Part shown: positions 22,674 to 62,892 of the stretch, piece after piece
Numbering within the stretch: position 1 is the stretch's first letter
How the letters are laid out: each line of letters starts with the position of its first letter
Source of the DNA: Vermamoeba vermiformis
Taxonomy: Eukaryota
Direction of reading: 5' to 3'
Length of the DNA stretch: 64,000 bases
NCBI GenBank assembly: GCA_045837725.1
Contig: JBEWZL010000184.1
Span: 62,001-126,000 of the forward strand
Notes under the pieces: model-generated
Told to the model about the DNA's origin: nothing
The model's database searches: none
Seen by the model: the letters and a program-made list of their open reading frames with translations, nothing else
Position numbers and translations under genes: made by a program

Positions 22674-25600
22674 CTAATCCAAGTTGTACCGCTCTTTCAA
22701 AGCTTTTCGCAGATCTTCAGGGAACTTGTTGTACGAAGGGCCCCAGTTCTCAGGCCCCAATTTCTGTTTGTAGGCGTGCAATATTTGGTGGAACATGTTC
22801 TTCAAGTCTTCTTTGGGCTTGCCCCAAGACACAAAGCCCAAGCACAGCTCGTAGAAAGCAGGCAAAAATGCGAGTGGTGCGGCGTTGATTGCAGCGCAGA
22901 GACCTCTGAACGCTGATTCTTTTTCAGTGTCGCTCTCGATATTACGCAACACTGGCAGCCATTGATTGACAAACTGAGGCAAGAAGGGCACTACTGTCTC
23001 AGCGGATGAGAGGCACAAGCGACCAATGCAAATAGCTGCGTTCTCTTTGAGCAGAGGGTCTTCAAGCTTGGGCTCGTTAATAATAGGGACAAGTTTCTCG
23101 AGGATGGGGATGACGAAGGGCCTCATTTCACTGATGCACATGTTAGTCTGCTTCAGTGGTACGTATTGCGACACTTACTCTCTGATCTGCACTGCAATCT
23201 CACCCATGGCCCAACTAGCATTGTTGCACACTGTGGCGTATTGTTTGGGGTGAATGGCAGAGATCATTGCTGTGATGAGCTGTGGCAGAGCTGGCTTGAT
23301 GTAGCCCAGCACCCACTGCGCCAAGTCACCAATCAGCGCAAAGGCGCTTTGCAGCACATCACCACGTGGGTCTTGTGAGACAGTGACGAGCATGTTGAGC
23401 AGATTGGATTGTGTCACGAGACTGGACACGCCAGAGTTGAGAGCTGTGAAGAGTTAGTGCTGTGTTAAGGTACTAGCCGAGCACGTACATTCAGTGAGGG
23501 CCGCAATGATGTCCAGCGAGAGGATCATAAACTCGCGTGGTGGAGGGTCCATGTCCATGTCAGCCGCGGCCTGGCAAAATGTTAGTAATCGGTGACACGT
23601 GTCAATAAGAGGTACTTACGGCAATGCCCAAAATGGTCTTTTCAATCAGTGTGATGGCTTTGTTGAATACCACACCTGCATATTGTTGGAATCCGATGCT
23701 GAGTGACAAGATGAGGGGCGGCAGAGCTTGCAGCACAGGATACAAATGAACGTCGTCATCAGCAGTCTCGAGCATGAATTGAATCATTGGCGGGACCAGT
23801 GCTTCAACATAGCGCGGTCTGTTCAGTGCACTGCCCACTGTCTCGGCCAAGGTACCAATAGCGTCCCAGAGAACGAGTCTGTTTTTAATCTGCAAATGTG
23901 ACACGTGTCATTAACGATATTGAGGCGTGGCCAGTACGTACTTGGAAGGAATTGGCGGCTTGAGCGAAGACATTGATAATGTTGTCCAAGTGCGGGCGCA
24001 TGTCTACATTGAACTCGCGCGAGTCATCCATAATGTTGGCGAGAGCACTCACTGCTGCGTGCTGCACCTTCTTGTTGGAGTCGAGCACGCGCGGCAGCAG
24101 AATGTTCAAGAGGTCTGAGATCATCTTCTTGGCTGCACGTGATGTGAGTGACATGCTGAGTGACACGTGTCATATTCTGACTTACCCTCGTGGTGATTCA
24201 TCAGCCACTTGGCATAACGACCGAGAGTCCAGCACGTGATGCTGCGAATTAAATAGACCTGATCATTGAGCAGACCGACCAAAAAAGGCAATATAGTATT
24301 CATGTGCGGGCCCAGGAACTGTTGCGCACCATTCGAGACAGTGCCGAGTGCCAAGACTGCAGCTTCACGGAAGATCCAGTTGTCAGTCTTGACCATCTCA
24401 CTCACTCGCGGCAACAAGACTTGCAACATATCCTCCTGTTCAGTGAATGATCTGTTCAGTGAATGGAATCGTACAACCAAACGCGCTGCAACTTACACCG
24501 AAGATGTAGGCCAGGGCATCAATGGCGGTGGCACTGCTCTTGCGCAGAGTCCAGCCATCAGACCCCTCGTCCAACACATTGCCGTCATCGTCGTCATCAT
24601 CATCGTCGTCTTCTTTGTTCTTTGGACCTGCATCATTCTCAGGCACGTGGGGCTTGATGTCTTTGGGTGCATCGGGCACTGCAGCATTGTCACCAAAGTC
24701 CACGCCGAGTGCGAGCAAGTCTTCAGGGCCGTAGGGCAATGCGCGCAACAAGACATCGAGCAGTGCGGGCAAGTGTGGCTTGAGCGAGTCATAGCACAAC
24801 TGCTCGTGCTCGCAAATAGCTGTCCAGAACTCGAGTGCTTCGAGTCTGATGCCCTCGTGCTTGTCTTGCGAGCTGAGCAGCATGTACTCGATGATGCGAT
24901 CGAGGCGCGGCTGCATGTTGCTCGCGTAACCCCAGATCAGCGTGGTGAAGGTCTTGCACACCTTGAGTCGCACTTGCGGAAAGGAGTCGGTGGCGAGAGT
25001 GAATATGCCCTGCAGTCGATAACACGTGTCAGTTTTGCCTAATTAGGAAATACACCATCTGCACAAACCTGCAAGAAGGCATCAAAATTAGCGACGATGA
25101 TGGTGGGTGTGGCGTAGAGAATAAAGTTCATAATCTCCAATGTCTTCTGTCGCAGCTCTTCACTCGGATGACCAAAGAATTGAATAAGACGAGGTACGAG
25201 CACATTAAGCGGTTTTGGACCGTTGGGCGGATCTATTTCAGTGCGTGGTGTGTCTTCGCAGATTTGACGCAAGACTTCAAAAGCACCGTTGAGTATTAAT
25301 GGTTCATTGCTGTCCAATAATTTCGTAAAGAATTCAATCACGCCCGGCCAGTTCGTCAATTTACCCTGCGAGCACGTGTTAGCAAGTCGAATTATTATCA
25401 ATTTATTCCCAAATATTGATACGCGGCGATCGTGCCTAAATTAATTATGTGGTAATTAAATATAATAAATGCGTACCCGTGACACGATCGTCGTAATAAC
25501 TGAAGCACAAGTGCGGCGCAGAAGTGCACTCGGATCTCCAACGAGGTTAACGATGTGTTGCTTCACATATTGCAGCACCTCATCAGGTATAGTTTTGAAG

Positions 25601-25900
25601 TGACGCAATACATTATTTTTCAATAAAATGCCTGCTTGAAAGCGGATTTCTTCGGGCAGATCTTGGCGTTCAAAAAGAATGACCAAATAATTGTTAAAAT
25701 CGGGCACTTTACGGAAGTGCTTCAATTGCTATAGAGGTGAATAAAAAAATATTAGATTATTATTATAATTAATTTTGATCAAATCCACAAACCTGCGCAA
25801 TTTGAAGCTGCACTTGCTTGCCTGCAGGTGCTGTAGCAGTGCGTAACAAATTAAACACTTCCTCGAGACCTTTAGGATTGGGTTGCCACTGGTTCGCCAT
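22674..25900 (-). CDS. TNPO1: Transportin-1 (karyopherin beta-2)
   Basis: MANQWQPNPKGL, acidic loop then WTLRKSSATAIDALA, IRSITCWTLGRY, CNNASWAMGEI, ENAAICIGRL. Confidence 0.93.
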
Positions 25901-25997
25901 TGGTCTCTCGATCCGATCTCCACAAATAAACTGACAAGAAAAACTGAAAATTTTGTTGCTTTTATTGCTCACTATACAACCGATTATTATACACCTC

Positions 25998-27238
25998 TTA
26001 TTTGAGCAGATCGACAATCTGTTGGTGATTGACGCCAGCACGCGTGGCTAAGATGCCCTTGTCATTGCCGATCGGACCTGTCGGATCGTAACCGAGCGGC
26101 TGACCTGCAATGAGAATAAGAGCGCGTAAATATAGATCTATGAGTGACTAGCGTGCACTACTAGTAGTAGTACTACTTACCGTGCACATCGGTGATGTGA
26201 CCGCCCAGTGCGCGCAACACGGCCTCTGGGGCGGCAGTGTCCCACTTCTTGGTGCCGAGGCTAAATTTGGCAGCGAGTTAGCGCAGCACTTGCCAAATAA
26301 GGAAATGCCAGTACTTGCCTGGGATAGAGATAGCAGTCGGCCTTGCCTTCGAGCAGCATGATGACCTTGTAGCCTGCACCGCCCACTTTGACAATTTCAC
26401 CGACAACTGACGACAACTTGCCTAATTGGGCCTGATCACGTGATCACATTAGCCAAATTAGGAAATTGCACTGACTACTCACATCGATCGCAGGCGTGGA
26501 GTGGAGGCGCGTGGTGCACAACACGAGCTTGTCACGTGACGGCGTGTGCAGTGAAGGCACGTGCGCGCCCACACCGATCCAGCCCCACATGGTGCGACCA
26601 GCAGGCCCTTCAAAGGGCTGGTGCATCACTCCCGCCACTGTCTCGCCGTCCACTGCAATGCCGACCAGTGTCACGACGCAGAAGTGATTGCCGAGCGTGA
26701 ACTCTTTGGTGGCATCGAGGGGGTCAATGAACACCGTCACGCTCTCCAAGGGGTAGTTGACACGTGTCACACTCGGCACTGCAACGCTCGTCAGTTGCGA
26801 CAAGTTGAGATCTGATTGCAAGTGCGGCGTCACTTTCAGCTCTTCTTCGCCGATAATGCGCAGACCCTCGTACCTGTGCATAAGAACGACGTTAAGGGCG
26901 CAGCGATGTTAGTGTACCGCAGTAAGACTTACCGAGCCCTTAAATCCCCTTCGATTAATTCTTGTGCTCGAACATCAGCTTGTGTAACTGCGTCATCAAC
27001 GCCTGAAAATAAATTAGAAAATTAAAAAATATTTTCAAAATTATTGATCTAGTTTGGAAGGCGCTGAACAATATGATCTTGAACGTTATATTACTCAAAT
27101 ATAATTTAGAAATTTACCTTTTTCTTTTACTTGCAAATCGCCGCTCTTGGCCACCTCTCGCACGATATCACCGGCTTTTTCAGCCAATCCAATGCAGTGG
27201 GACAACAAATCTTTAATATTAATTGTTTTGCCTGACAT
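25998..27238 (-). CDS. BPNT1: 3'(2'),5'-bisphosphate nucleotidase (inositol monophosphatase family)
   Basis: [36 protein letters not shown]. Confidence 0.88.
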
Positions 27239-27454
27239 TTGGGTATATTTCGATCGTGTGTAGTGCTTATTATATTTGCAAATGAATTTTGAATGGCTGT
27301 GCTCAAAGACTGTAGTTCTTGTGGTTAAATTTAGCTTAGCACTGGGCAGACGAGACAATATTGCTTTGCGAATACACGATAGCATCACCGGTATTGTATT
27401 CACATGTGACAAATTGGACAAAGTGAATTTATTTGAACGTGTTCTGGATCCGAT

Positions 27455-28967
27455 TTAACGTCTACCGGCAAGTGGAAGTGCATAGGGATAATATGGTGCT
27501 TTCATCTTGAACACTTGCAGAACAAATGCGAAGCAGCCCACGCCCAAGAAGAGCACTAATAAGAAATAGCTCCAGGCCTTGCCCGAGTCTTCGACGCTTG
27601 GGATCCACTCGTTCAACAGAATCACAGCGATACCAATCGCCAATGATAGTGCACCGATAATATATCCCTCGAATTGGAAGTGAGATCTGAGATTGGGCAA
27701 GAAGAGCCTAATCAGAGTCAGTATCAGACACGTGTCACTAATGACATGTAATACGCGTGTCACTCACCAGACATTGCCGCGCTGATCAGTGTGGTACTTG
27801 GGTGGGTTGTGAATGGAGTTGTAGATGATGCCTGATATGATCACAAAATAGAGGACCTATGAGACAGTCAGCTCAGTGCTGTGGAACGAGTCAACATGAC
27901 ATACGCAAGTGAGATTGAAGAACAAGAGTGGTGCACGACGCTTAGTCTTTTCAGGTGCATATTGATACGTGGCCAATAACACGAGACCCATCAACAGACC
28001 AAAGCCAATCAAATAGAGACGCCAGCCCGACAGCTTCAATCTGCTCTCTGCAATCTTGATCTGCGCAAGTGTCAGTGGTGTGAATATCACGTGTTGTTAT
28101 GCGTACATTGGTCTTGGCGAGGGTGTTGACGAACTGGGCCAAGCTCGAAGCACTGTCTTCGCTGTTGAAGACGTAGACATCGCGCGTTTGAAATTTGAAT
28201 TGCTTGCCCGATGAGTTAGTGGGAGGCAAGTGGATCAGCGAGGGGATGTTAGCCACTCGTTTCTGATATGAAGGCTGAGTATAGGGAGTCTTACATATAG
28301 CGCTGCAAGGTACGTACTCTGAGCTGTTCAATCAAATCCTGCACGTCTGCAACGTCCACAATGGCAAAATACAAGTTGTTTTGCGTGCTGTATTGCTTCT
28401 TGTACTCCGCCACGACTGTGTTGAGCTCTTGTTGCATCGCACTGACATTACAGGGCATATTAATATCTGAGGGGCGTGACGTGGATGTGGCTACTTACAG
28501 GCAAGGCTCGCACAGATACTGCGCAGTGTTGCTAGTGAAGTACAGGAATAGGGTGTAGTTGCGCGGACCAGTGGTGGCTACTTGTCGCAAGCTAGCAGAG
28601 TCCAAGCGCAGCTGACCATTCTCTAGCGGCAGTGCCTGCAATTGCTGCCACTTGGCTGCCAATTCTTCTTCATTAGCAGGTGTTGAAGAGGGTGCAGTTG
28701 TTGGCTCAGGTGCTTTAGCTGCCTTTTTGGTCGTCTTGCTTGTCTACCAAAAATAATTTATTTTTAGATCGCCGGAAAATTATCAAATTCAAAATCGCAA
28801 GTGTTAGGTGGTGTAATTACACTCAATAAATTATTTATAAATTAATATAAAATTGTATACGCTGGTTGATTGAGGTGATCTACCTTTTTGGTTGCGCACA
28901 CAGCAGATCCAATGAGCAAAATCAAAATAAGACAAGCACTGTACACCTTCAATCGACTATTATACAT
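27455..28967 (-). CDS. Oligosaccharyltransferase OST3/OST6 (MAGT1/TUSC3) subunit
   Basis: Signal peptide, GPRNYTLFLYFT and CEPC thioredoxin-like region, TM helices, FQFEGYII, FKMKAPYYPY. Confidence 0.82.
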
Positions 28968-29513
28968 TGCAATGAGACGTGTACTTGCTTATTATTTACA
29001 GAACAATAATCTTCGCGACACGTCACGATTGATTTTGACCGGTAATCAAACTGGCAGAAGTGGTATAATGTTAAAGCTGCTTTGATTACCCCTTGTTGGT
29101 ATAGATAATGCTAGGTCTCTTTACGGAGCTAGTGCTTGTCAGTAAAGACGTACCAAAATAGTTGCTGCCGCGATCCATCAGCACGAGATAACACCTTGTC
29201 GTTGACTGTTACGAGAATGATAGTTTTGCAATCAAAAGCCTATTGTACTGCATTGAAATGTAGTACTAAAGCACTGCTCGCTATTTCTTAATTGACCCCT
29301 GAGATTAAGAAACGTAACAGCTGCGATATCTTTTTTACTTTTGCCTGGTGATGAACGTTAGGACACTAAGAATTCAGTTGGTCATATGCTTAGAAATCAA
29401 GGAATTCTCTGATTGATTTTCGCCTGCTCCAATTCTGTGTCTTGTTCCCAACAATTTGCGTCAAACTTTAATGCAATTTGAACGAAACTCCACAATCAAG
29501 TTTAAATGTAACA

Positions 29514-31111: not shown

Positions 31112-31280
31112 ACTCCTTTGTAAATTGTTTGTACAGTAAATAACTCGCGATTAGACAAACTGATGTTGAAATTCTGTGCGAGGGAAATTTGAGCGGACAC
31201 GAAACGTTTCTTGCTGAAGGTTCTTTTCTTTTTCGTTCCACTGAAACAAGACAAACAACAGTATTTGTTTTGATTTGTAT

Positions 31281-32808: not shown

Positions 32809-32929
32809 GTGCACGTGACGCAGAGTTCAATTGTCAACTGTTTGTAAATAAAAACTGAATGCAGTAACCGCGTGTGATAAATTAGTTTATTTATATAAGT
32901 GTCTGACAGTCTGACCAACAAGAATCAAC

Positions 32930-34632: not shown

Positions 34633-34695
34633 ACATCGTCCGTTATAATGACAACAAAAAGCCTATTGTTTATTATTCGCAATTTATTTCCGAGT

Positions 34696-37536
34696 TCAAT
34701 TAATCGGGTGATCTGCGCTCGGTTCACTGGGCTTGTACCGCTCGTGACCAGGCACTACACTCCACTTGGGATAGACTCGCTTATACAGACTCATGCACAC
34801 CGTGTCGTGGTGACCAATCTTCGAGTCAAAGTAGCACTTCATGTGCCCGTGCGTACCGAGTGGCTCTTTGATGTTGCCAATGTGTCCATATTTCGTCCAC
34901 AACTCCACGGGCTTGAACCAGTTGATGTCCTCCGCGTTGTAGAACATATCGCGCACCACTGCTCGACGCTTGTGCACTTTGTAAGGCATGCCAGTGAGCA
35001 CAATCTTCTTGATGATCAATCGATCCGGATCCACGCTCAAGAGTGAACCAGTCGCCAGCAATTCACCACCATTGCTGAATATCAGCACGGGCAAGGGCGG
35101 GAATGAGATGGGTGCGTAGACTGATGCCGTGCACACACGATCAGCGTGCAAGAATCGCTCGTACTTGTGTTTGTCGCAGTTGATGTTGTTCTCCGAATAG
35201 AGCGGTGCAGCACTGTAACGTCTGAAGCCAGTGTTGAACACGACTTGATCCTTCGACTTGACCACACTCTCGCAGCTCGGGTGCTTGCTGACAGCGTAGT
35301 GCACGACGGACATCTTGTTCTCGTGCTTGAACAGACCACTCAGTAGCAGAGGGCGCAGGGGACTGTGATTGTCCAACAAGTTGCGCGGCACATCCACCAA
35401 GTGCACTGTGACGTAGAGCCCTGACTCCACGCCCTCGTGATTGTCCAACACGCGCAGACAGGTGCGACGGAAGTTCTGGAACTGGAAGATGCGCGAGTAG
35501 TCGAGGGGCAAGTTCTCTTTCGGGTCCCAGGGCGATGTTCTGAAGCTCTTGAGACCGCGGTACCTGTCACGTATGTGCGGTCAGTATTCAGTGAACAGTG
35601 TGACATCTGTCATTGACTCACTTTTGGAATCTTTCGCGCGCATTGACACCGAGGGGCACATCGACTTCATCGGGGAAGTCGAGATCAAACTCTTCATCGT
35701 CGCGCTTGTGTTTCTTGGCGGACTGTTGGGGCTCAATATCTTCGTACTCGTCGCCGTCTGATTGGTCGTCTTGCACCATCGCCTCATCATTTGCAGCCCG
35801 ATCGAATCGCACAGTCTTCTTGTGTTCGTTGCTGTTGCTGCTGCTGACGTGCACACCTCTCGGCTCATCGTCATCGTCGTCCATCATCTCATCGTCGTCA
35901 TGCTCCTCGCCGTCCTCATCGTCCTCTTCGTCTGAATCAGGGATCCACGCTGCCTCAATGCTGTTGTCGACTTTTTTGCGCAACCGTGCTGTAGTGACAG
36001 ATGAGCAATGATCTTTGTTGACACGTGTCAAACACTTACCTTCAGCGCGATCGAGTTCGTCTTCAGTGGGCCACGTCTGTTCGTTGTTCATCGTGTCCAA
36101 CAAGTTCTCATTCACTAGACTCTCCTGTAGTGCACTGCGTTAGAGGCTATCAACAGCGGGCACGCAGCGTACGTACTCTGTTTTCGTCTGATTGGCCGAG
36201 TATGACGGTGGTCAGTTCCATGCCGCTATTTGTCGTGCTAGGAGTGTTGTCTGTCATATTTACATCGCCGTGATCGGTCTTGCGTTGTTTGGCATAACGA
36301 TGTGGATCTGGCGGTCCTTCAATCTGCGCACAACAGTCAACAATCTACATGCAATATACCCCGCGAATAGCACTCACCATATTCACTTGAAAGTCGCCGT
36401 AGTTCGTGAGATGCACGAGCCAGTTCGGATTGAGCACTCCTCCGCGCAAGTACCCGGACACTAACAGCGTGCCCTTGTCTGGATTCTGCAACGAGTTAGT
36501 GCTGCCACTCCACCAGTACAGCTACAGTACGTACTTGATCGCTGCTGCGGAACTGCGTCTGTTCCACCAACATGTAGGGACGGTTCTCGCGCCAGTGAAT
36601 GGTCTTCACTTTGGTGTTGCACACGAAGCGCAGTACTTGCGTCATGTCCTGCACTTGATCGCAGGGGAACAGACGAGGTTCATCAGAGAACTCAAAGTCG
36701 AGCCAGCCTCCTGCTTGGCGCTTGATTTCAGTCACTTGTTTGGGCGAGGCTTGATCCAGTCCTTGCATCAGTCCAAACACGGTCGGAACTCCTTGGGCTT
36801 TGACAGCTGCTACGAAGGTGCGACCAGTATCGTCACAAAGTTCATCGGCAGTCATAGCCCAGAGAATAATGTCGGCAACCTATGGAAGAGAAGATCAGAT
36901 CTGATTCGATCTCGATCGTGGATCGAAGTGTAAAACATACTTTAGCAATATCTAATACTGCGATCATATCACGAGCTGTTGGGAAAAGCGAGATGCGACC
37001 TTTAAATTGAGCGACACTGGAGGAATGAGTTAGAAAATGTCAGGGATTCAGATGGATCGTACTTGAAAGTCAACGGTACTCCTGGTTTTTTCTCAATATT
37101 ATGAGCCTCGGCTGAAGCGAGAATATTATCCACAATATCGTCCATTCTCACGCGGCTACTAAGAGGAATAATGGCCTATTAAAATAATAATTAATTTTCG
37201 CATCCACCGGATTTACCAAATAAAAATAGCCGTTCAATATTGTCATGTTGAAATCCTCCAAATAATACATACCACTAAAAGTGGAGGGCCCTCATTGGTC
37301 TTGCCCAACCGTTTCTTCTGAATGACCTGCTCACGCTTCTGTTTGGCCAATTGTCTGGCTTTGTTCTTGCGCGCCTCTTTGCTTTCGTGCGCGGTCTTGG
37401 GCACTGCTTTGTTCGACACGCGCTCGATCTTGCCCTTGTTGCGATCACGGATCTGACCCTTTGAGGCGTGCTTGCTTTTGAACGGCTTGTTTTGTTGCTT
37501 GCCGCCCGTGGGGCGATGTCTGAACGGAGTGCTCAT
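34696..37536 (-). CDS. TSR1: Pre-rRNA processing protein TSR1
   Basis: QQNKPFKSKH, EQTWPTEDEL, FPDEVDVP, YRGLKSFRTSPWDPKENLP, GNIKEPLGTHGHMKC, LYKRVYPKW. Confidence 0.95.
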
Positions 37537-47844: not shown

Positions 47845-50800
47845 ATGGCACAAGTACAGTGGCAGAATCTTATTGATGACCTCGTAGGTCTCATCAACAA
47901 GTAAGCAGCGCTTGTAGCTTGTTGTTGCGGCACTCCATTAATATTGAATAATATTTTTAAAGAAAAGCAAACGATCTCGATGTGTATTACGCACTCGATA
48001 GGATATTGGACGAGGTGAGGTCTGGTGGTAATTTTACAGACCACATTGAGGCACTATTGCAAGCGATCAGTCCCCTGATCACCTCCGTCAACTGGCACAT
48101 GATCCAATCCGTGCTGTTTGGCGCGCAACAGATCGTAGAGCAGTTCTTGCACTTCATTCAAGTCGATCTCGCTGCCAATACCTCGCCCTCGCTGCTCTCG
48201 CGCTACTCCAAGCAGATCGAGCACTGGATGCAGGACGGCGGCGTGTGGCTCAACTTTGTCAAGCACGGCGTGCAGTACAAGGGCAAGCGCGAGGTACGTG
48301 ATGCCGCTGCACAGTTCATCGGTGCCCTCTCGCTGCTCTGCTCCTCGCTGCCCGCTACTGCCGTGCCCAGTGCGTGGTACCACGAGCTGATCCACGCGCT
48401 GCTGCAGTGGAGCGAGGAGAGCAAGCCCGAGCCCTTCGAAACACTCGAGGGCACCATGATGGCACTCGGCTACTGGCTCTACAAAGCACGCCGTCAAGTC
48501 CTCGACGACGCGACACATCTGCAGCTGATTGCGCGCCTCGAACACTACACGCGCTACGACAACGCACAGGACAATGCGCGCTACATTCGACTGCAAGCAC
48601 TGCGCGGTGAGTGACACGCACAGTGACAGGTGTCAAGTACTAACCACGTGACAGGGCTGGAGCGCGCAGTGCGAGCGGGCACCCTGACGACAGCACGTGA
48701 TCAGCTGTTCGAGCACGTGATTGCACCGAGTCTCGCGGACAACAACATTGATGTGCGCAAAGCTGCCGCACAGCTCATGACCTCGTGGTCACGTGTCGTC
48801 TCATCGGAGCTCTCCACCAGGGCAGTGACCGCGCTGCTCGATCAGTTGCAGGCCAGTGTGCAGTGGGAGCAGCGTCACGGCATCAGTCACGCGCTGTACT
48901 TGGCGGCGCAGGACCGTGCCCTGGTAGATCGACTCGACCGCGCCCTGATTGACCGCACGATGACTGCCCTCACCGAACAAGTGCGTCACACACACAGCGA
49001 GTCCAAACAGTAAGTCACGTGATCTGTTCGCAGCGATCTCACTCTGACACGTGTCACACTTTCAGATCGCGCGGTGTGACAGTCGTCGCCAATGCCGCAG
49101 CACTGACGGCACTGAGCGAGCTGTGCATGACACTGCACGAGTCCATAGACGTGCACTTGTTGCCAGTCATCACCGAGGCCCTCGTCTCGCCGCTCGATCT
49201 CTTGCAGGACGCAGCTGGTCGTGCCTTCTATCGCCTCGGCACTGCTGCACCACAACTGCTCGGCACGCACCGCTTGGAACTGCTCGCACTCACCTACAAG
49301 TCACTCTTCCACTCCTCGCACCCCATTCAAGAGCTCGCCAATCGCACGCGACGAGATCTGGCGGGTGATGCACAGGCCCTGGTGCGCGAGGAGTGGCCGC
49401 GCTTGATGCGAGCCCTGCTGCGCGAGATTGCCAGTGAGAACCCCGATGTGCGCGAGGCAGTGTGGAAGGCCATTGACGAGCTGAGCGGTCAACACTTGCC
49501 TGGTCTGAGTGCTGAGCCGTGGTGCGCGCAGATCATCGCTGCAGCACAGCACTCGCTCGCCACGGAGAAGAGTGAATTCGCCCTCGCTGCCACCTGTCGC
49601 GCACTGGGCCGATACATTGCACTGATTGAGCAGCCGCAACAACTCACCGCTCCGTTCTGGGGCCTGCTCGCTGCACTGTGGAGCGATGCCACCACTGCAA
49701 CTGGCACCGTGCTCACGGCTGCTGTCGAGTGTCTGGTGGCACTCTTGACACGTGTCAACTCGTACCAAGCAGGCGCAGTGCCCGATCCCCTCGTGCTGGC
49801 GTGGATTGGTCTGGCACGTGACGATGAGCCCTCGGTGCGCAGCAGTGCAGTGTGGTCCTACGCACGTGTCACGCAGCACTTGACACCCCGCACAGTGATT
49901 GACACATCGCGTGCGCTGTTGAACAACGACCAGTTTGAGGACCGATGGTGCGACATTGCTGTCACGTGGAGTCGTTACGGCAGTGGCATTTGGTCACGTG
50001 CCACCCCTGATGAGCGCAAAGACGCCTGTCACGTGGCACTGGCAGCACTCGTGGGCCCTGCTTCGGATGACACTGCTGCCCTGGCTGCGTGGATCCACGT
50101 GCTGCACGACTTGACATCACGCGACACAAGTGTGACACCAGCCCTGGTGCGCAGCATGCGCAGTGCACTGTTGCACGTGCTGACTGACTCGCGCACTGAA
50201 CTCGACATTGAGGACTTGGCAGAATGGGCGGACCACTTGCCCGAAGAGGAACTCGATTTAACTGAAGCACGTGATGTGGACAGCACGAAGAAGAAGGGCA
50301 AAGCTAAGGACAAGCGACAGCAAGCCCTGGCATTCTGGCTCAAGTTGACAGCTGTCAGCGAGCTGTTCGCGCACTTGACGCACAAATTCACGCAATCAGA
50401 AGATGAAATTTCAGCCAAATATGTCGACCTGATCACGTGCGTATTATTTATTTACACTGACACTAGTATTAACTCATTTCATTAGGGCGGTGGTTGAGTC
50501 ACTCAAGCCCGGCGATGTGTTGCTGCACTACGTCGAGCACGTGATCGATGCTGTCAACAAACACGACAGCACTCTCGCGCAACAGCTCGCCAAGCTCCGT
50601 CCAGGCAAGTATTTACATTATAACTAAATCCGACTTCACCACTGTCAAACATTGACGAACAACGATTAATTGCCATATATGGAATAGTGCCCGCCACGCA
50701 GAGCCTGGAAGAGATCGCAGCGCATTGGAAGAGTGTCAAATTGACAGCGGAACAATGGGCAACACTGCTGTCGCAATCACGTGCGGCACTGAACGCAATG

Positions 50801-51785
50801 AATGGCGCGCAATCCAGTCACGTGATCTTGCTGGCCCTGGTGAAGAGTGCCGTGGCCCTGCTCGATCAGTGCGTGGACGCGCAGGACTCACTCGCCACAC
50901 GTCTGTTGCGCGCTCAATTGTTGCACGTGATCAGCACTGCTGTCAAACACGTGCAAGATGTGACTGTGGACGACGCACGTGATTGGTTGGTGACCACGTG
51001 GTCTACAGTGAGTGACGCGGACAACGCCATGACACCTGAGAACTTGGAGGACCCGACAGCGGATCAGAGCAAAGAAGTCGAGCAGTGGTGTCACGCGACT
51101 GCACGTGCTGCATTCACAATCACTGGCCTCGTGCATCAACTCGATCACGTGACCGGAAATCTCCTCGCGGCCCTGGGAGAGGAACGCGAAGAACTGCTGG
51201 AACAAGTGCGCGACGAGGCATTCAACGAAGACACGGACGAGAGCGAGAGCTTGGCACTGCTGTCCGTGCTGTCCAGTGTCGCGCAACAGTCACGTGACCT
51301 CGACGCGCAGCTCTGGACACAGTGCGTGCAGTACCTCACACGCGCTGCTTCACTGCAGAACGAGCAGCACTACTGCACTGTAGCACGCATCTTGCACACT
51401 GTGGCACAGCACTTGACAAGTGACAGCTACACGCAGCACGTGACTGAACTGCAACAACTGCTCGAGTGGGGCAGCAAGCGCGAAGTAATTCACGTGGACG
51501 AAGGCAAGAGTGCGGCACTGCTGTTCAGTGTGGGATACAAATTGGCAGAGATCGGTAAGTGACACGTGTCATTCGATAACCTCCACACACTCACCGTAGT
51601 TACGTGCAGAGCCGAGCAGTGCCTTGCAACAACAGCTGTCAGACATGATCTTCAACGAGGACATTGAAGACGAGTGTCGCATGGCACTCTTGTCCGCGGT
51701 GAGTGGCACCTTGCCACTGCCCACTCGACAGGAGAGTCTCACGGCCAACGAGACCTTCCACAAGACTGCGCAGAACATTGCTTAA
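47845..51785 (+). CDS. Large HEAT/ARM-repeat protein, locally reminiscent of ECM29
   Basis: Multi-exon helical repeats (DNNIDVRKAAAQL, WEQRHG, SENPDVREAVWKAIDEL, DDEPSVRSSAV); ECM29 resemblance is weak and from memory. Confidence 0.7.
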
Positions 51786-51836
51786 TCACACCAATAAACA
51801 GACCCAGTGCACTATATACACCTTTATTACACAGCT

Positions 51837-53032
51837 CTATTTGTGCTTGTTCGGATCAAACACTTCCCACCGCGACATGGGGTGCAGATGTTTGTTGCGC
51901 TCGTAGAACTGACGCGTCACGATCTTCGCGGCGTGGGACTGCACGAATGAGTTAGTACTGCATAGAGATATATATATATGTACCGCGCTATTCACGTACC
52001 TCGTTGCTCGCTGTGCCGTCGCTGAGTCGGATGTCTTGCTTCACTTCCCACTCGAACAGCGGGCCTGTCTTGCCGCGCGCACGTGTCTCAATCAGCTCGT
52101 AGAAGGTGTAGTGCTGTCAACTGCTGTCAGCGATCACGTGATTTACTAGAATGACACGTGTCACTCCTACCTGCGGAATAATGGCGTCCTCTTTCACGAA
52201 CAACAAGCTGTCCACTGGCACTCCGCGCAGTTCAGTGAATTCCTTGCGCGCAATGTCCAAGAACTGTTCGACAGTAGTGCCACGTGTCACCGTCACTTGT
52301 GCGCGGTGATTCAGTCCGTCGTAGTAATTGCAGTGCACTTTGAGCGGCGCGGACTTGATCCGCTCTTGTTCCTCCAGCCACTCGCGCTTCAATCGCTCGC
52401 GCTCCTGTGCCTCGCGCTCCTCACGCTCCTTGTCGGGCAAGAAGGAGGTGTCGACCGTCGGGTCTTTGCCTAATTTCTTCATCGTCGGAGCAGATCCGCT
52501 CTCGTTCTCGGTCTTGGCTCGCTTGTTGTTTATAGTGAACTCCTCTTCTTCCTCCTCACCCTCGAGATCAAATGACAGCTTGCTCTTATTTATTTGCGCT
52601 ATTTTTCTTTTCTTCGCATTGCTGCAAGAGGTCAGATCCCGATCCAAATTCCAATCTCCAATAAATACAGCGAAATTATCGGCTATTACTTACTTGTCTT
52701 GTTGTCGTTGCTCTTGCGATTCTACTTTGAGGCGTTTCTTCTGAAATTCATCGAGCGTGTGAAATCCAACAGTCTCTTCTTTGAGCTGCTCTTCCAACAC
52801 ACTCTTCTGCGAGCTGAACTTGTCGCTGATAGACACAACACCTACTTGCGACTCTTTGCGCAGCTTGTTGACTTGTTCTTGGTGTTGCCGCTGCATCTGC
52901 TCGCGTTCTTTTTGAAGACGCAAGATGCGATTTATATCCACTACAATCGCGCGTTAGACCGTTAGCATAGCTCTAATACCTCATATTGAGTAGCAGCCAG
53001 GACGTACCATCAGTGCCTTTGTACTCGGTCAT
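51837..53032 (-). CDS. FAM50: XAP5/FAM50 family protein
   Basis: KLSFDLE, KKLGKDPTVDTSFLPDKERE, LLFVKEDAIIP, ARGKTGPLF, SHAAKIV. Confidence 0.92.
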
Positions 53033-53164
53033 GTGTGGTGTTCAGTGCTCGGCGCGAATCTGCAATGAATTCGCAGCGCTGATTGGACAATTAGAGCACA
53101 GGCAAGTAGAGTGTTAATAGGGTAGTTATTTACATGACTTATGACACAACAGTATTATACATCG

Positions 53165-54311
53165 CTACAGGCCCTGCACGCGCGTCAAGGACTGGATCTG
53201 CTCGCCACATCTGGGACAGGGTGCTTTGCTGTCCTCCAAGAGCAGCAGCTGCAGACAATAGTAGCAGCCTATATGCCCGCACTTGCTCGCGTGGGACATC
53301 TGCGGCACTGCACCACACACCACGCACGCACTGCTCTCTGTCACCGTGCGAGGGGCGGAATAATTGCTCCACCAGTGACGCGTGACACGTGTCAAATAGT
53401 GTCTGGCGCGGTGCAGCTCCAACATGGGCACGATGAACTGCATGAATTCAGTGAAGCCGTTCCACACCAGCTGTCGATTCATGTACTCGAAGCTGATCTT
53501 GCGCGCGATGCTCGGTCGGCGGTACAAGAGCCGGATGCGCAACACACGGTGCACGAGGGTGAGGTACTGGCCTGCTCGAGGACATTAATCGGCAGTCCTA
53601 ACTATAGTGTATGTATAATGTACATATATATATGGTACGCACCCGAGTACAAGAAGTGCAGGTAGTTGAGCAGCGAGAGCACTTTGAGCACACTCAGCGC
53701 GCGATGTTGCAACACACGACGCTGCGCACTGACTGGCAGCACGTGACTGAGCACGTGACCGGGCACGTGACCCAATCTCGCGCTGAGATACTTGTAGCCA
53801 CTGGTCGCTAAAAATAGCAGCACTTTCTTGGTCGGGGTGAGTGCCGCAAAGTAGAGATTTTGCAGCTGATTGCCATATGTGGTGTTGAGAGACCACACGC
53901 TGATGCGAAATATAATTAATTCGAGGAACAGCTCGAGCTCGGGGGTGAATCTGCTGATCGACTCGGCCTGGGTGAAGTGTCAGTGGTTAATTATTTTATT
54001 ATTTTTCCTGCGTGTGTCTTTATTGCGTATGCTTAATTCGCAATTTCATGTCCAGCTGGCTATTATTTAAAATTTACCTTGAAAAATGAGAAGATCTTCA
54101 TAAATTGCATTTTTAAAATGTCATTCAGCTCTTTATCTAATATTTGTGCGTCCAGTTGATTAACGCGCAATATTCTGACTTGAGACGCATCTCGGGGCTG
54201 TCCCATCAATTTGTCTTGGTAATCCAGCAGCGTTGGTTGGATCTTGCTTGCTTCTTGTTGCCACTCATTCTCAATCTGCGGCAACACCGACGGTACGACT
54301 GCCTCGTTCAT
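53165..54311 (-). CDS. PEX2: Peroxin-2 RING-type peroxisomal membrane protein
   Basis: LRVNQLDAQILDKEL, TYGNQLQNL, ISFEYMNRQLVWNGFTEF, CGHIGCYYC...CPRC. Confidence 0.92.
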
Positions 54312-54681
54312 ATTGATGTGGCGTGTTGTTTCATCGGTGATTGGTCTTCAACTGTGTTGGGGAACTGGATCTGTCCCGAAGCAGAACGAGCACGTGCTCG
54401 TTAACGGCAGTCACGTGATCGAGCTGGATGCGATGTCCATCACACGTACTATATTAGCGAGGTACACTAGTGCATTGTCAGCACCACTTTATTGAGGTGT
54501 CAGTACACAGCCATCACACACGTATGCTCTCATCAGTCGTGTGGTCCTCAGTACCGGGCTCAGTAGTAGTGCCGGTCTGTACATATCACTGCACCGGGCT
54601 CAGTACTCATCACTGCACTGTACATGACACGAGACACAACACATATTCACACGAGACATCACTATCGGCACCCCCATTGCT

Positions 54682-55662: not shown

Positions 55663-55903
55663 GGTGGTGGTGGTATTGTTTGCAACTTGATTACGACACG
55701 ACAGCAGTTGCTCGGCTAATTGAGAGTCTGACCACACGAGTCAGAGGCTATTTTGGCGAGCCAGAGACAGCACGAAAAGGCGAAAGAAAAAGCGAAGGAA
55801 AAAAACACTCGGGTAAAATCAGGCCGAAAAATAATAGGAGCCGTTTGAAATCAGTTCAGAGCACCGCTCCCACTCAAAACAACACAAATAACACCTGCAC
55901 ACT

Positions 55904-56709
55904 ATGTACAACACCTTGTTGTCCGTTTTACTTGCTGATGACGCAACCCCCGCCGTTGCTTCATTCTTCGGATTTATGGGCGCTGCTTCTGCCTTGATTT
56001 TCACTTGTAAGTAGACATTGAATGTTTTGACATTATGGAATATATTTATAGTTAATTCGGTAATTTTTTAAATAATTATCGGTTAATTTGTACGAAATAC
56101 GATCTTGGTTAATCTAATCTCCTTTTCTTGTGAACATTCAATTAAGCCAATTAATATGAATAGGCCTCGGTGCTGGTTATGGTACTGCTAAGGCTGGTGT
56201 TGGTGTCGCTTCTATGGGTGTGATTAGGCCCGACCTCGTCATGAAATCTATCATTCCCGTTATTATGGCTGGTGTCATCGGTATTTACGGTCTGATTATT
56301 GCTGTCTTTCTTGCTTCTCCTAGTAAGTGTTAATGAGCACATTTTGCTACTCAATACTGCATTTTTACTGACTAAATCTGAATTGTAACCGATCTACATC
56401 CAGATCGTTACGCAATTATTATTATTGCAAACAAATACCGCAACATTACTAACGCACCAATTAATAGTTCAATCCACTGGCTACACTGAATTCAAGGGCT
56501 TCGCTGCTCTCGGCTCTGGTCTCTCAGTCGGTCTCGCAGGTCTCGCTGCTGGCATGTCGATCGGCATTGTCGGTGACGCTGGTGTGCGCGCTAACGCTCA
56601 ACAACCTAAGATCTTCGTCGGTCTCATTCTCATTCTCATTTTTGCTGAAGCCTTGGCTTTGTACGGTTTGATCGTCGCCCTCGTTATTGGTCTTAAGGCC
56701 AACTCTTAA
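55904..56709 (+). CDS. VMA3: V-ATPase proteolipid subunit c (16 kDa)
   Basis: [80 protein letters not shown]. Confidence 0.96.
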
Positions 56710-57079
56710 GCTCTTAATAAGACGAGCGTATTGATATTAATTTATTTTTAATAAACTCATTTTTCGAAACAACGAATTATCATGCAGCCCCGCGCGAAGA
56801 ATTTGACCACTGTCGAAATTTAGCAAAGGTTCGGAGCAAGCTAACTTTCACGTCAGTGATGACAGACGCCAGCGTCGTACCAGGCCTTTAATCTTAATCA
56901 GAAGGCGTACATTTTTTTAGCTTGAGATGTTTGGCGATGCACGTCGATTGCAAGGGATGATGATGCTGGTAGCAGTAGCGTAGAATTCTGAGTTGAGCCT
57001 ATCGCAATCCTCCCAGATCTGCCATCAATCATCAACTCAACTGGGAGCTTTTTACACGTGGAGATGGGACATATGATTT

Positions 57080-58460: not shown

Positions 58461-58580
58461 TCAGATGATGCAGCAACCCCAGACGGATGCATCCTGTTCA
58501 GCCTGGCAATCCCCCAGGTTCTGTGTGGAACTAGCATTGGATCTCCAGACTCAATCAAAGTGCTCAGGTGGGCTCTGGGG

Positions 58581-58671
58581 GACGGCCAGGCCAAATTGGC
58601 CAGGGTGGCCGGTAAGACTTGTGATTTTGCCAGGAAGGATACAGGAGCAGGTTCAATTCCTGCTGCTGCCA
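58581..58671 (+). pseudogene. tRNA-like element (Thr-TGT-like pseudogene or SINE head)
   Basis: A-box-like GGCCAAATTGG, hairpin GGTAAGA-CTTGTGA-TTTTGCC, T arm GCAGG-TTCAATT-CCTGC, T6 run after 58671; acceptor stem mismatched and spacing non-canonical. Confidence 0.55.
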
Positions 58672-59118
58672 TTTTTTCTGAATGTCAGTTACTAGTGGAT
58701 TGTTATCACCCAATGCAGCAGTAATATGTATATTAATGCCTCATATGTGTAGATGCTCCAGTTGGCGCCTTGTACCATACATACCTGGCCAACTTCCTCT
58801 GGAAGCCTCTTTCATGGATAATGCTCAAAATGCCTTCAACTATGCTGGAGGTAGTTCAATAGTGAAATATGGTTTGGGTTCCTATCCTGGGGCTCTTGCA
58901 TGTCATAAGTAATGTATGGTCTTGCACATTCGTTAGGTACTTTTAACTAGCATTAGAAACGTACAACCCAATCTTCAAGAGAACTTTCAAGCTGTCAGCT
59001 CCTGGGTGAAGATTGGCAAGAGACCCAGCAACGCTGCTCTGTAGTAAGAACTATTAAATGCCCAACTGAAATTACGTACAAAAATCCCTCTGACAGGTGC
59101 AATGTCAAAACTGTCAAA

Positions 59119-60637
59119 ATGGACTTGTCAGCAACTGCACATTTCATTGCAATGAACGAAGAAGAGCACGAGTTGAGTGTTCTCAGTGAGGCTGAAACCG
59201 ATGAGGTCACTCTAATCGAGTGTAATGATAAGGATCTTGTGGTTCAGGGGCCAGATCAGCCCTTCGCGACTAAAAAGGAGTTGATCTGCTTCTTTTTGTT
59301 TGGTGTGTTTAACAATTTCTCTTTTATTATCATGTTAAGGTATTCAAGGCAGTTATTTACATTATTGTTCGTTACTAAGACCCTTCAGTGCCGCAAAAGA
59401 TATTCTGCTGCGCGGTGAAGGAGGGCCAATAATACCCGTGGGAGTGGTGTTGCTCGCAGATATATTGCCGACACTACTGATCAAGTCTACCGCTGCGTTG
59501 TATTTAGACAAGATCCGCCCCAAGTAAGTCACGCGTGCATTGCGAACCTTCTTAGCACCTTTCTGCGTAATAATACATTGCTGCAGCTATCGCATATCAA
59601 TCATTGTCCCCACACTGTTCATCTCCTTTCACATTGTCGCGTGGTTCAGCGCTATTCCGCTCAAATTGCTGGGGATCGTGTTGTCGAGTGCCTCCTCTGG
59701 TCTCGGTGAAGTCAGCTTCATATCACTCACGCATCAGTACCACCCCGATAGTGTGCAGGCATTCTCTAGTGGCACGGGAGGTGCGGGACTGCTCGCAGCC
59801 CTGATCTACGTCCTGTGCACGACGGTGCTGCAACTCTCGCTCACATCCACGCTGGTGCTCTGTTCGCTGCCAGTACTCGCGCTGTTGCTCGCATATATAC
59901 TGCTGCCTGTTCCGCGCACTGACCCTGCACCTCTCAGTGGACACCGCGCACCTGCTGACAGCTCGCTGGTGTCTCGCCGAGCCCTCTTAAAGGTACCTGC
60001 TAAATAAGGCAATAATGACGCCGAACTGATCGAAATTTCGTTCCAGCCCCTGCTCGTCAAGTACGTGTTGCCAGTGGCCATCACTTATCTCGCGCAGTAT
60101 CTCATCAACCAGGGCATCAATCCCACCATCTGGTTCACGAATGCTCCGTTCAGTGAACGAGATCACTACGTGCTCTATCAGGCTCTTTACCAAGTAAGGC
60201 AAGTGTCGTGTGCTGAACTCGATTGCTGACACGTGATGACAGGTGACTGCCTTTTTAGGCAAGTCGACAAGCAAGTGCATGCCCATTCGTCAGCTGTGGT
60301 TGCTAACAGTGCTGCAGGGCCTCAATCTCGCGCTGCTGCTCACACACGCGCTGAGTGGCGTGCTGCCCAATGTGTACGTCATGTTCGGCGTGGTGCTGTA
60401 CGAGGGCTACATTGCGGGGGCTATCTACGTCAATGCGTTCTATCTCGTGCGCACGCAAGTGGACGAGCAACATCGAGAGTTCGCGCTGCAAGTCACTAGG
60501 TAAGTATATATGGACCCTATTCTGCTCGTACTGACTTAGTTGCTTGCAGCGCGGCAGATGCGATCGGTGTTTCGATGGCTGGCGTGTTGGCGTTGTTTGT
60601 GGAGCCATTCATCCTGTCGCATCGCACAACGTCATGA
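59119..60637 (+). CDS. CLN3: Battenin (CLN3/BTN1) lysosomal membrane protein
   Basis: FFLFGVFNNFSFIIMLSAAKDIL, VLLADILP, SSGLGEVSF, FSSGTGGAGL, YLINQG, YEGYIAGAIYVNAF; start may be 59119 or 59152. Confidence 0.93.
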
Positions 60638-60787
60638 CCACTGTTGCTGCTTCAGTCAGTATTGCTGGGTCGTGTGGTGGATCGTGTTGTAAATAAAATT
60701 TGAAAAAAAGGCGGGCAATACCGTTGTTGCACGAAATACCGTTGAACATCACTTATTTTATCAACAAGTAACTATGCGACACTAGAG

Positions 60788-62892
60788 ATGACTGAGCAGA
60801 TAGAGATTCAAGAAAGCAATTCACAAAGCATTCAAAGTGACGATGAGTCAGGCTCAGATTTGGGGGACGGAGACGTCGTGGAGAAAGTCGAACGTCGTAT
60901 TTATCAACCGATAGAATTCGATTTAAATGATCCGAATAATACATTTGTTGTTGATTTTGTCAGCTTACAACCAGACCAGCAGAAAGTAAGTGATCTGAAC
61001 GAGTTTTGATTAAATTTACAATAATTTCTGCAATTAATTATTTTCATCTTTATAATTATTTGCTACGATAATGACTGTTTTGGAGCACAAATCGTGGTTT
61101 TCCAACAAACAAATGTCCGTGAAAATTAACACTGGCACATGACAGACGAACACAGCTGCAAATGCCGAGCTTGCAGTGCCTGTGCCCGAGATCAGTGCTG
61201 CGCCGAGTGAGACTGCGAGTGCGAGTGAGATCAAAAAGAAAGAGCCCAATCCTGCGCTATTCTCGAACCGTATGACCAGTGTGATCCAGCGCATTGAACA
61301 GATCTACGCGACAGCAGCGGACCTCGGATACGACTCCAACGACAGTTTTATAGACGACGACGAGCTGTTTGACGAGGAGAATGACGCTGCAGCGGATGAA
61401 GAGGCGCTGTACCAAGGGTTTTACATCAACAAGGGTGAACTCGAGACCAAAAAACGCGCGCTTGAATTGAGCGAAGAGAGCGAAGAGCCCGCCAAGAAGA
61501 AGCGGCGCGTGGAGAGCGAGAGCACCACCACCACCAGCACTAAGAAGAGCGAGGGCGACAAGGAGGGGCAGACTAAAAAGAAGAAGAAGAAGAAGACGAG
61601 CAGCACGGGCGAGGGGAGTGCGAAGACGAGCAGCACCGATGCGGACAAGAAGAAGAGCAAGCAGCGCAGTGCGGGGGAGGAGGAGCACGCGAGCAAGAAG
61701 AAGAAGAGTGCCGCACTGGACGGCAAGACCAAGAAGAGCTCCGACAAGACCACCACTCCATCGCCGTACAAGACCACGCCACGCCTCGAAGAACACATTG
61801 TTCAACTCGCTGCTGCTGCGCGTCAATTTGTCGAGCGACATCTCGCCGAAAAACAACAACAACAACAGACCCCGCCCCCCACTGCCAGTCCCACCACAGC
61901 TCCAGCCAAGGACGGCAACAAAGTCGTCAGATTTCCGCGTCGCTTAGAGCCCAAGCTGCTGCTCGTGGCGCAAGATCTGCAAGCTCTGTATCCGCAGCAC
62001 AACTTCCCCGAGGAGCACATGCAGCGCATTGCAGCACCCTTCGCCCCCGTGTTCAAAGCCGAGTCCGTGCGACAACGCATGCTGCGCCTGCTGCAACAAC
62101 ACAAGCCCGAGCAGATTGACGAGAAGTCAGAGCTGGGGCAGCTGTTGAAGATCCGTCAGTACCTGCTCAAACGATTCAACGAGCGACTGCAGATCACGTG
62201 CGCCGCGTTGAAGCGCACTGTGCTGCCCGGTGAACCACCACCACGCTGGACCTGGAGCGAGGACTTCAAACGATACGTGGGCGAGATTGTGGAGCTCGAG
62301 AGGGTGATTGTCACCCTGCGCGCGAGTGCGAGGTACGTACCTGATGTCACGTGACTGGTTGTGTGACACTCCGATTGACACGTGTCACTGCAGCGAGAGC
62401 AAGAAAGAGCCAGGCAAAGAGAGCAAGCCCGTGGACATGAACAAAGCGCTCAAGCCCATGTACAGCGAGTTGAGTGCCATGTGGCCCGAGGGCTGGATCA
62501 CCAATCAGCGCATTGCCACGGCTGTCAAACCTCGCGCCAACGATGCACTGCCCACTCCCAAGCAGTTGATCGAGCACTACACGCCCTACCTCACGGGAGA
62601 GAAGAGCGACGAGATATTTCCGCGCCCCTCCGTACTCGCCAGCACGACCAATAACACTGTCGCGCAAGTCAGATCCGGGCCACCCATGCCGCAGCACACA
62701 GCTGCACCGACGCAAGCCTCAGTGCAAGGACTGCCGAGTGGACTGGCGTTCAATCAACTCACTGGTCTGGGCTGGTCACCCTCCCTGCCAATACCCACTG
62801 CATTCCCGCAATACAACTTGTACCCGCAGCAGATGTACAATAATAATGCGCCTATTAAGCCAGGCGAGTTTCCGTACTACACGCCGCAATAA
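60788..62892 (+). CDS. Ubinuclein/Hpc2 family (HUN domain) HIRA-complex subunit
   Basis: VIQRIEQIY...GYDSNDSFIDDDEL...GFYINKGEL; later YSELSAMWPEGW. Confidence 0.85.

Follow-up and report, generated by a model that had tools for sequence, protein, structure and literature searches.

An iterated 12-bp CACGTG-core palindrome in short introns and exons of Vermamoeba vermiformis: putative intragenic sites for a dimeric DNA-binding factor

Introduction

RTCACGTG is the E-box/G-box site of bHLH-Zip factors of the Cbf1, USF and TFE/MITF type, and exonic transcription factor sites that constrain codons are known as "duons". Excerpts of the papers cited here list GACACGTGTC and tGaCACGTGtc as plant bZIP-type promoter motifs (PMC8133646), give a G-box probe containing agaCACGTGtcg for electrophoretic mobility shift assays (bioRxiv 10.1101/2020.03.10.985002), describe two TGIF1 homeodomains bound to the palindrome TGACAGCTGTCA in a crystal structure (PMC6158717), and characterize the HIP1 motif as hyper-abundant, under selection, quasi-periodic, and recognized by two methylases (PMC5861425, PMC4390886, PMC13756078). 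Here we analyzed 64,000 nucleotides of Vermamoeba vermiformis DNA (assembly GCA_045837725.1, contig JBEWZL010000184.1, forward-strand positions 62,001 to 126,000; hereafter the window), in which a 12-bp palindrome with a CACGTG core, TGACACGTGTCA, recurs in short introns and in coding exons.

The element is like HIP1 (GCGATCGC, cyanobacteria), as the same excerpts describe it, in being a short perfect palindrome present in orders-of-magnitude excess, in coding and non-coding sequence alike, and kept beyond neutral expectation (PMC5861425, PMC4390886, PMC13756078). It differs in having a eukaryotic host, a 12-bp unit built on a 6-bp core, a density in the window of approximately one per 5.8 kb rather than at least one per gene, and a distribution strongly concentrated in some genes, with none in others or in AT-rich non-coding sequence. 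The plant G-box/abscisic acid response element GACACGTGTC is identical to the inner 10 bp of the 12-mer, but it is a plant promoter element, whereas the sites described here are intragenic and belong to an organism with talin and vinculin genes. As with duons, binding-site words in coding sequence bias codon and amino acid choice, but their density and exactness are far greater than is known for duons. Among the papers listed by full-text literature searches with motif strings and keywords, none described the motif as an iterated genomic element; the motif-string matches appeared to be primers or probes, plant G-box motifs, TALE sites, or bacterial sites. Our leading reading, which is tentative and which we would place just short of an even chance, is that the motif represents selected double-stranded DNA binding sites of a candidate dimeric factor, either E-box/G-box-like or TALE TGACA-N2-TGTCA-like, inside transcription units.

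Results

The 12-mer far exceeds compositional expectation

Eleven exact copies of TGACACGTGTCA were found in the window, one at every start reported in a first-pass annotation of this DNA, and none occurred in 100 dinucleotide-preserving shuffles. That annotation had expected about 0.004 copies under a uniform model, the value that an order-0 Markov model also gives, and had proposed that the enrichment might be lost under a Markov model of shorter k-mers. It was not: expected counts were 0.037 at order 4, 0.16 at order 5, and 0.74 at order 6. The expectation nears the observed 11 only at order 7 and above, where the 8-mers counted stem from the copies themselves. Allowing one mismatch added four sites, for a total of 15 compared with 0.26 expected. 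Two of these had been noted previously (25020, given as ~25021, and 27726) and two are new (48624 and 52278); a third reported near-copy, at ~60227, is merely a half copy (TGACACGTGatg). The sister CACGTG palindromes TGATCACGTGATCA (26433) and GTCACGTGAC (26531, 51289, and 62346) were all present as annotated. The exact copies, and the near-copies and related palindromes, are as follows.

23593..23604, exact TGACACGTGTCA; minus-strand intron 23571-23619 (49 nt) of a HEAT-repeat gene, with Pfam HEAT matches on the adjoining exons
23899..23910, exact TGACACGTGTCA; minus-strand intron 23890-23941 (52 nt), 9 nt upstream of the 3' splice site
24161..24172, exact TGACACGTGTCA; minus-strand intron 24133-24185 (53 nt, boundaries by sequence reading), with a further CACGTG at the acceptor of the same intron
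26758..26769, exact TGACACGTGTCA; minus-strand exon of an inositol-monophosphatase-like gene, encoding V-T-R-V-N
36019..36030, exact TGACACGTGTCA; minus-strand intron 35989-36039 (51 nt, boundaries by sequence reading) of the Tsr1 gene, where the palindrome reaches 18 bp (TGTTGACACGTGTCAACA)
49045..49056, exact TGACACGTGTCA; plus-strand intron 49010-49065 (56 nt) of the CACGTG-dense HEAT-repeat gene, transcript joint 49006>49066; its TGAC overlaps a branch-point-like CTGAC
49746..49757, exact TGACACGTGTCA; exon of the CACGTG-dense HEAT-repeat gene, encoding L-T-R-V-N
51560..51571, exact TGACACGTGTCA; plus-strand intron 51555-51609 (55 nt), 5 nt past the donor
52152..52163, exact TGACACGTGTCA; minus-strand intron 52114-52170 (57 nt) of the XAP5-domain gene, with ATCACGTGAT in the same intron; X8 loose ends at 52116/52171
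53383..53394, exact TGACACGTGTCA; minus-strand exon of the Pex2/Pex12-like RING gene, encoding L-T-R-V-T
62376..62387, exact TGACACGTGTCA; plus-strand intron 62333-62393 (61 nt) of the HUN-domain gene, 6 nt before the acceptor, with GTCACGTGAC in the same intron; transcript joint 62330>62392 (cut +2)
25020..25031, one-mismatch copy TAACACGTGTCA
27726..27737, one-mismatch copy AGACACGTGTCA; minus-strand intron 27708-27767
48624..48635, one-mismatch copy TGACAGGTGTCA, the central GG variant; intron 48607-48654
52278..52289, one-mismatch copy TGCCACGTGTCA
35601..35612, TGACA-N2-TGTCA variant TGACATCTGTCA; Tsr1 intron 35564-35621
50346..50357, TGACAGCTGTCA; exon of the CACGTG-dense HEAT-repeat gene, the same sequence as the published palindrome for TGIF1 homeodomains

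The element is discrete and two-fold symmetric

The hexamer CACGTG occurred 79 times compared with 14-24 expected (orders 0-2), making it the most over-represented palindromic hexamer in the window. Its outer TGA and TCA flanks are coupled, with both present at 11 sites, one at seven, and neither at 61 (Fisher p=1.5e-8), and all 13 occurrences of ACACGTGT were the 12-mer or a one-mismatch copy. The half-site TGACAC was counted 77 times on both strands versus 51-54 expected, but 22 of these lay within full copies; outside them, approximately 55 remained in the window, with no enrichment over the same expectation. Inverted TGACA..TGTCA pairs were found 14 times with a 2-bp gap (central CG in 11; GG, GC, and TC in one each) and never in the window with gaps of 0, 1, or 3-6 bp, for which 0.22 were expected per gap. 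A second class of 15 sites, TCACGTGA, has two uncoupled flanks.

For the 76 CACGTG sites that could be oriented by gene, the 5' flank was the same as the complemented 3' flank (p=0.18-0.85). Position -1 was seldom C and frequently T, and position -2 was a purine in 58-62 of the 76. These mirror-image preferences indicate a two-fold symmetric signal, as for a dimer reading double-stranded DNA, rather than a strand-specific one. TGACACGTGTCA is a discrete two-fold symmetric DNA element.

A CACGTG (ACGT) core with dyad-symmetric flank preferences is the pattern of a bHLH E-box or bZIP G-box, and the purine at -2, the frequent T and avoided C at -1, and the 15 TCACGTGA sites add to the likeness to bHLH-Zip sites in particular. 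The 12-mer departs from these in having A at -1 and needing TG further out, which is no known bHLH requirement, and the sites lie in introns and exons rather than in recognizable promoters, with up to 34 in 3.7 kb. The inverted TGACA half-sites, 2 bp apart in 14 of 14 inverted pairs, resemble the TALE palindrome TGACAGCTGTCA (TGIF1, MEIS, PKNOX), of which position 50346 is one exact example. Here, however, the center is CG in 11 of the 14 pairs, which creates a CACGTG core absent from the TALE site. The TALE half-site TGACAG, with its central GC/GG and use as a monomer, was not the prevailing form, and TGACAG alone was only slightly enriched in the window (64 versus approximately 50 expected).

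Three CACGTGAC units with exact 12-bp spacing lie at 53740-53769, inside the minus-strand open frame 53585-53986. The adjoining frame, 53165-53584, is the one in which Pex2/12-like domains were found.

Complete copies sit mainly in very short introns

Eight of the 11 copies were annotated as intronic, and each of the eight was located in a GT..AG intron that is 49-61 nt long and has branch-point-like motifs, five on the minus strand and three on the plus strand; transcripts support three of the eight. Introns in the window are very short as a rule (43-65 nt in most); their donors are strong (GTAAGT, GTGAGT, or GTACGT), and their branch points are of the TACTAAC or CTGAC type. Introns 49010-49065, 62333-62393, and 50437-50485 are backed by spliced transcript contigs of two RNA runs, and 52114-52170 by loose ends. 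Within its intron, the motif starts 5-15 nt past the donor in five cases and ends 6-9 nt before the acceptor in the other three, where its TGAC falls at the expected branch-point place. This variation agrees with the earlier observation that the motif is not a splice signal of fixed position. An additional intron, 50605-50687, has GC-AG ends and is also backed by spliced transcript contigs from two runs.

A filter based on splice signals and open frames proposed 89 short introns, 5,381 nt together, some of which are false. The 12-mer was present in six (one modelled on the wrong strand) and CACGTG in 13, and the filter missed two motif-bearing introns; the 12-mer is therefore found in roughly one in ten short introns. 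Normalized per base, its density in introns far exceeds that in exons.

The three exonic copies encode T-R-V, as previously annotated, and all read [V/L]-T-R-V-[N/T]. Among the 7,659 window codons whose frame is confident, T-R-V occurred seven times compared with 1.5 expected, and three of the seven were encoded ACA-CGT-GTC, compared with 1.2% expected per tripeptide. Several T-R-V tripeptides use near-variants that contain ACGCGT, e.g., GACACGCGT and ACGCGTGTCAC.

CACGTG sites are clustered by gene

The distribution of CACGTG along the window is strongly uneven (chi-square over 4-kb bins, p=1e-27), with 5 sites in 0-23 kb, 15 in 23-29 kb, 12 in 29-48 kb, 37 in 48-54 kb, and 10 in 54-64 kb. 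The first 23 kb contain no 12-mer, as had been noted; in window sequence of local GC below 0.40 (13.1 kb), the 12-mer is likewise absent and CACGTG occurs three times. Two zones stand out.

48644..52286, dense cluster with 34 CACGTG; it runs through exons as well as introns of the plus-strand HEAT-repeat gene and takes in the convergent XAP5-domain gene in its 3' part
23362..28093, a second zone rich in CACGTG; four exact and two near 12-mers are among its 15 sites, with TGATCACGTGATCA also present at 26433

The dense cluster spans 3.7 kb and is the GC-richest part of the window. Within 48-54 kb, 37 of the 44 ACGT tetramers belong to CACGTG. Large exons of similar GC elsewhere hold few sites: none in ISWI (2064 nt) or Tsr1 (867+384 nt), one in the GTPase gene (1854 nt), and three in eIF4G (2802 nt). 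The first exon of the CACGTG-dense HEAT-repeat gene (642 nt) also has none. The 12-mers fall where CACGTG is abundant: nine of the 11 have a further CACGTG within 300 bp, compared with a mean of 0.65 for random positions.

Exonic sites exceed coding requirements and are retained in a relative

The spliced coding sequence of the dense HEAT-repeat gene (49066-51556) contains 21 CACGTG, which fall in all three frames (10/9/2). Codon permutation yielded approximately two, and synonymous shuffling yielded 7.8 ± 1.8, the highest count among 2000 shuffles being 14. The steps from two to 7.8 to 21 indicate that the protein itself is enriched for H-V and that codon choice adds more. All ten H-V dipeptides are encoded CACGTG, where approximately 6.4 would be expected from codon usage, and nine of the 14 CGT arginine codons are within xCA-CGT-Gxx.

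Conservation was assessed with one metagenomic relative (L001, 2,195 bp), found by a metagenome scan with the HEAT-repeat exon; it is 83-84% identical to the window in protein and 80% in exon nucleotides. Thirteen of the 21 exonic CACGTG were intact in L001, compared with 586 of 2007 of all hexamers (29%; p=0.002). At third codon positions, 36 of 43 were identical inside the sites versus 393 of 631 outside (p=0.0026). L001 itself has 16 CACGTG, 14 of them common to the window, and the best conserved of the frequent words were those related to TGACA, CTGTC, and CACGTG. The exonic 12-mer at 49746 was kept, within 21 identical bases, and so was TGACAGCTGTCA at 50346. Retention of exonic sites at synonymous positions points to site-by-site selection.

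The dense HEAT-repeat protein gave weak HEAT and importin-like matches. Homologue searches returned three close homologues, at 99, 91, and 86%, and no distant ones.

Discussion

The analysis shows the extreme excess of the motif, the coupling of its halves, the symmetry of its flanks, its clustering by gene, and its retention in the relative beyond coding needs; that a protein binds these sites, and to what effect, we infer. In the reading we tentatively prefer, TGACACGTGTCA would represent the full-length member of a CACGTG-core site family, read in double-stranded DNA by a dimeric sequence-specific protein. The candidate reader would be an E-box/G-box-type bHLH-Zip or bZIP factor, or a TALE-like factor on two inverted TGACA half-sites. 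A bHLH/bZIP-type protein marking gene bodies had been raised in the first-pass annotation and fits best of its suggestions. Only some genes carry the sites in their transcription units. Complete 12-mers occupy, for the most part, the few bases left unconstrained in very short introns, and exons take up mainly the 6-bp core, at a cost to codon and even amino acid choice (H-V, x-R-V/D/A, T-R-V). The likely role would be intragenic regulation or chromatin marking of particular genes. Other possible roles are regulation of neighbors, organization of chromatin or nucleosomes, or a recombination-related function in the GC-richest segment; intragenic DNA may serve neighboring genes in a compact genome.

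Several points weigh against binding by a dimeric factor. Gene bodies, rather than recognizable promoters, hold the sites, and 34 sites in one 3.7-kb stretch is far above ordinary regulons. The central CG is unlike the published TALE site, the outer TGA/TCA is no known bHLH requirement, and the element matches no single known factor class exactly. A strong codon bias (His CAC 28/30, Val GTG 42/61) explains part of the exonic CACGTG excess. Conservation was tested for a single gene in a single relative, and the sole intronic copy that could be compared, the 12-mer at 51560, is missing from the orthologous L001 intron. Finally, a DNA-modifying or repair enzyme would give the same symmetry. The element is best classed as an unusual variant of palindromic protein-binding sites, intragenic and very dense. 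Were the sites bound, roughly one in ten tiny introns would hold an exact 12-bp palindrome for protein binding, and one gene would be packed with a core site every ~100 bp, visibly bending its protein sequence (H-V, T-R-V). Such an arrangement would show with unusual clarity how, in nature, signals at the DNA level can override coding preferences, with short introns as parking places for regulatory DNA.

An enzyme of that kind is the basis of a HIP1-like explanation, which we consider unlikely: a genome-wide DNA-level process would make or protect the palindrome, through an orphan or restriction-type CACGTG methyltransferase tied to repair, recombination, or DNA uptake, with no transcription factor-like function. 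The motif is palindromic with symmetric flanks, it is hyper-abundant by orders of magnitude (11 versus 0.004-0.16 at orders 0-5; none in 100 shuffles) in coding and non-coding sequence, and its sites are conserved above background in the one gene and one relative compared, as the excerpts cited above report for HIP1. However, the genome-wide spread in and between genes, at roughly one or more per gene, was not seen within this window. The distribution is very patchy, with 0-1 sites in exons of similar GC (GTPase 1/1854 nt, Tsr1 0/1251 nt, ISWI 0/2064 nt), the first 23 kb are without the 12-mer, and the relative lacks intronic copy 51560. A fully specified 12-bp unit with coupled halves also exceeds the typical length of a methyltransferase site. 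CATGTG/CACATG, the products of deamination, reach 0.77 of expectation, only a mild depletion, and the CpG observed/expected ratio lies at 0.92-1.02 across the window, so there is no repair-type or methylation-decay signature; on a cognate methyltransferase, the CpG ratio is neutral. A depletion of one-off variants, as repair would leave, was considered separately and found unconvincing; only AACGTG/CACGTT was clearly low, being strongly depleted window-wide (9 versus 35 expected, 0.26). As a uniform process, the genome-wide HIP1-like mechanism suggested in the first-pass annotation is unsupported in view of the patchiness, the retention at synonymous sites, and the lack of a repair signature.

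A more restricted form of this idea, equally improbable in our estimation, is a eukaryotic counterpart of HIP in which dedicated machinery (a methyltransferase, repair factor, or chromatin reader) would maintain TGACACGTGTCA/CACGTG in the transcribed DNA of part of the genome and dictate codon and amino acid choice, the HEAT-repeat gene being an extreme target. If a modification or repair system proved true, it would be the first HIP-like phenomenon outside bacteria, as far as literature searches could find.

An RNA-level signal is doubtful to a similar degree. CACGUG and UGACACGUGUCA in pre-mRNA would be read by an RNA-binding protein that controls, for example, retention, decay, or clustering of particular transcripts, resembling the hexanucleotide clusters (DSR) in fission-yeast meiotic mRNAs that are read by Mmi1. 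The sites are restricted to transcribed sequence, introns and exons included, there are many per transcript (at least 32 in the HEAT-repeat pre-mRNA), and a palindrome would give genes on either strand the motif in their RNA. An RNA motif, however, needs no palindrome, whereas this one has 12 palindromic positions, coupled halves, and mirrored flank preferences. Structured intronic RNA of a hairpin or mirtron-like kind was rejected: the eight motif-bearing intron stretches, three of which deviated by a few bases from the actual intron boundaries, folded no better than shuffles (z -0.51 to +1.29, compared with -1.06 to +0.88 for eight control introns).

It is very unlikely that the word is a by-product of other constraints, arising in introns from branch-point (CTGAC), donor (GTGAGTGAC), and acceptor (ACAG) vocabulary and in exons from HEAT-repeat peptide motifs plus codon bias. 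TGAC does lie at the expected branch-point place, 15-18 nt before the acceptor, in three of the eight introns; splice donors fully explain another palindrome, GTACGTAC (nine copies); and codon bias with protein sequence alone predicts 7.8 CACGTG in the HEAT-repeat coding sequence. The observed 21 is nevertheless above all 2000 synonymous shuffles, and synonymous positions inside the sites are conserved. Five of the eight intronic copies lie just past the donor in introns with a separate TACTAAC- or CTGAC-type branch point, approximately 80 other predicted short introns are without the motif, and the exonic copies and exact 12-bp symmetry are left unexplained.

Least probable of all are footprints or miniature copies of a mobile element (e.g., introner or miniature inverted-repeat transposable element terminal repeats), an origin that the enrichment in short introns and the common 13-nt start (GTGAGTGACACGC) and similar layout of introns 27708-27767 and 48607-48654 might suggest, but against which stand unrelated flanks (80-nt identity mean 27.5%, maximum 40%; "not G" at the first outside base is the sole preference), no visible target-site duplications, motif-containing 16-mers that each occur at most twice, and copies in conserved coding sequence. 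The first-pass annotation had also judged the flanks unrelated and had named longer flanking homology as the sign of a transposon; the identities above speak for its view. Within the window, a mobile-element origin is largely refuted.

Additional features of the window

Pfam assigned window genes to talin/vinculin-like, ISWI, eIF4G, Tsr1, GTPase, inositol monophosphatase, XAP5-domain, Pex2/12-like RING, and HUN-domain proteins and to two HEAT-repeat proteins. The closest named proteins to Tsr1 were 52-58% identical, and ISWI was approximately 50-55% identical to proteins of very diverse eukaryotes. The talin and vinculin domains suggest a lineage on the amoeba side or the animal/fungus side. 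A tRNA gene at 8667-8739 was the sole Rfam match in the window.

Two other palindromes are over-represented. GTACGTAC occurs nine times compared with 0.8 expected (12304, 14151, 23934, 28310, 31960, 36169, 36527, 38403, and 62333); the predicted introns that contain it use it as their splice donor (GTACGT + AC), irrespective of strand, an ordinary explanation for its excess. CAGATCTG occurs ten times compared with 1.4 expected (3974, 36896, 39650, 41391, 45379, 45862, 46414, 46524, 46718, and 57014), with three copies in 46.1-47.9 kb between the divergent GTPase and HEAT-repeat genes, and may be a second palindromic element.

A scan of viral contigs for the 12-mer adjoining CACGTG returned 22 loci, of which 21 were single-copy, equivalent to chance level, and one was a phage contig with nine. 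This GC-rich contig (L012, IMG/VR; 11,289 bp of 17,112) has HNH-endonuclease/HTH and exonuclease-like open reading frames and carries exact 12-mers at 152, 1828, 3713, 4338, 4647, 5505, 6399, 7724, and 9176. Most are at gene junctions, where the TGA of the motif is a stop codon and ATG follows directly, and the first two precede TTGACA..TATAnT promoter-like sequences. The phage copies look like a repeated operator site of a phage regulator, unrelated to the eukaryote.

The gene at 55870-56720, whose translation resembles a V-ATPase proteolipid subunit c, had by far the highest coverage of any gene in the RNA runs. Species-labelled RNA reads at this gene showed "opposite strands" joints and 95-99% identity and so come from a different strain or close species. 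The species-labelled reads (X23 and X24; sparse, 95-99% alike) gave no coverage of the dense HEAT-repeat gene. Contigs from runs that carry the labels of at least seven other coded organisms contain near-identical exon sequence of 48500-53500, as do water metagenomes, and relatives seen in metagenomes are 80-93% identical. The source organism thus seems to be widespread, either associated with other samples or contaminating them.

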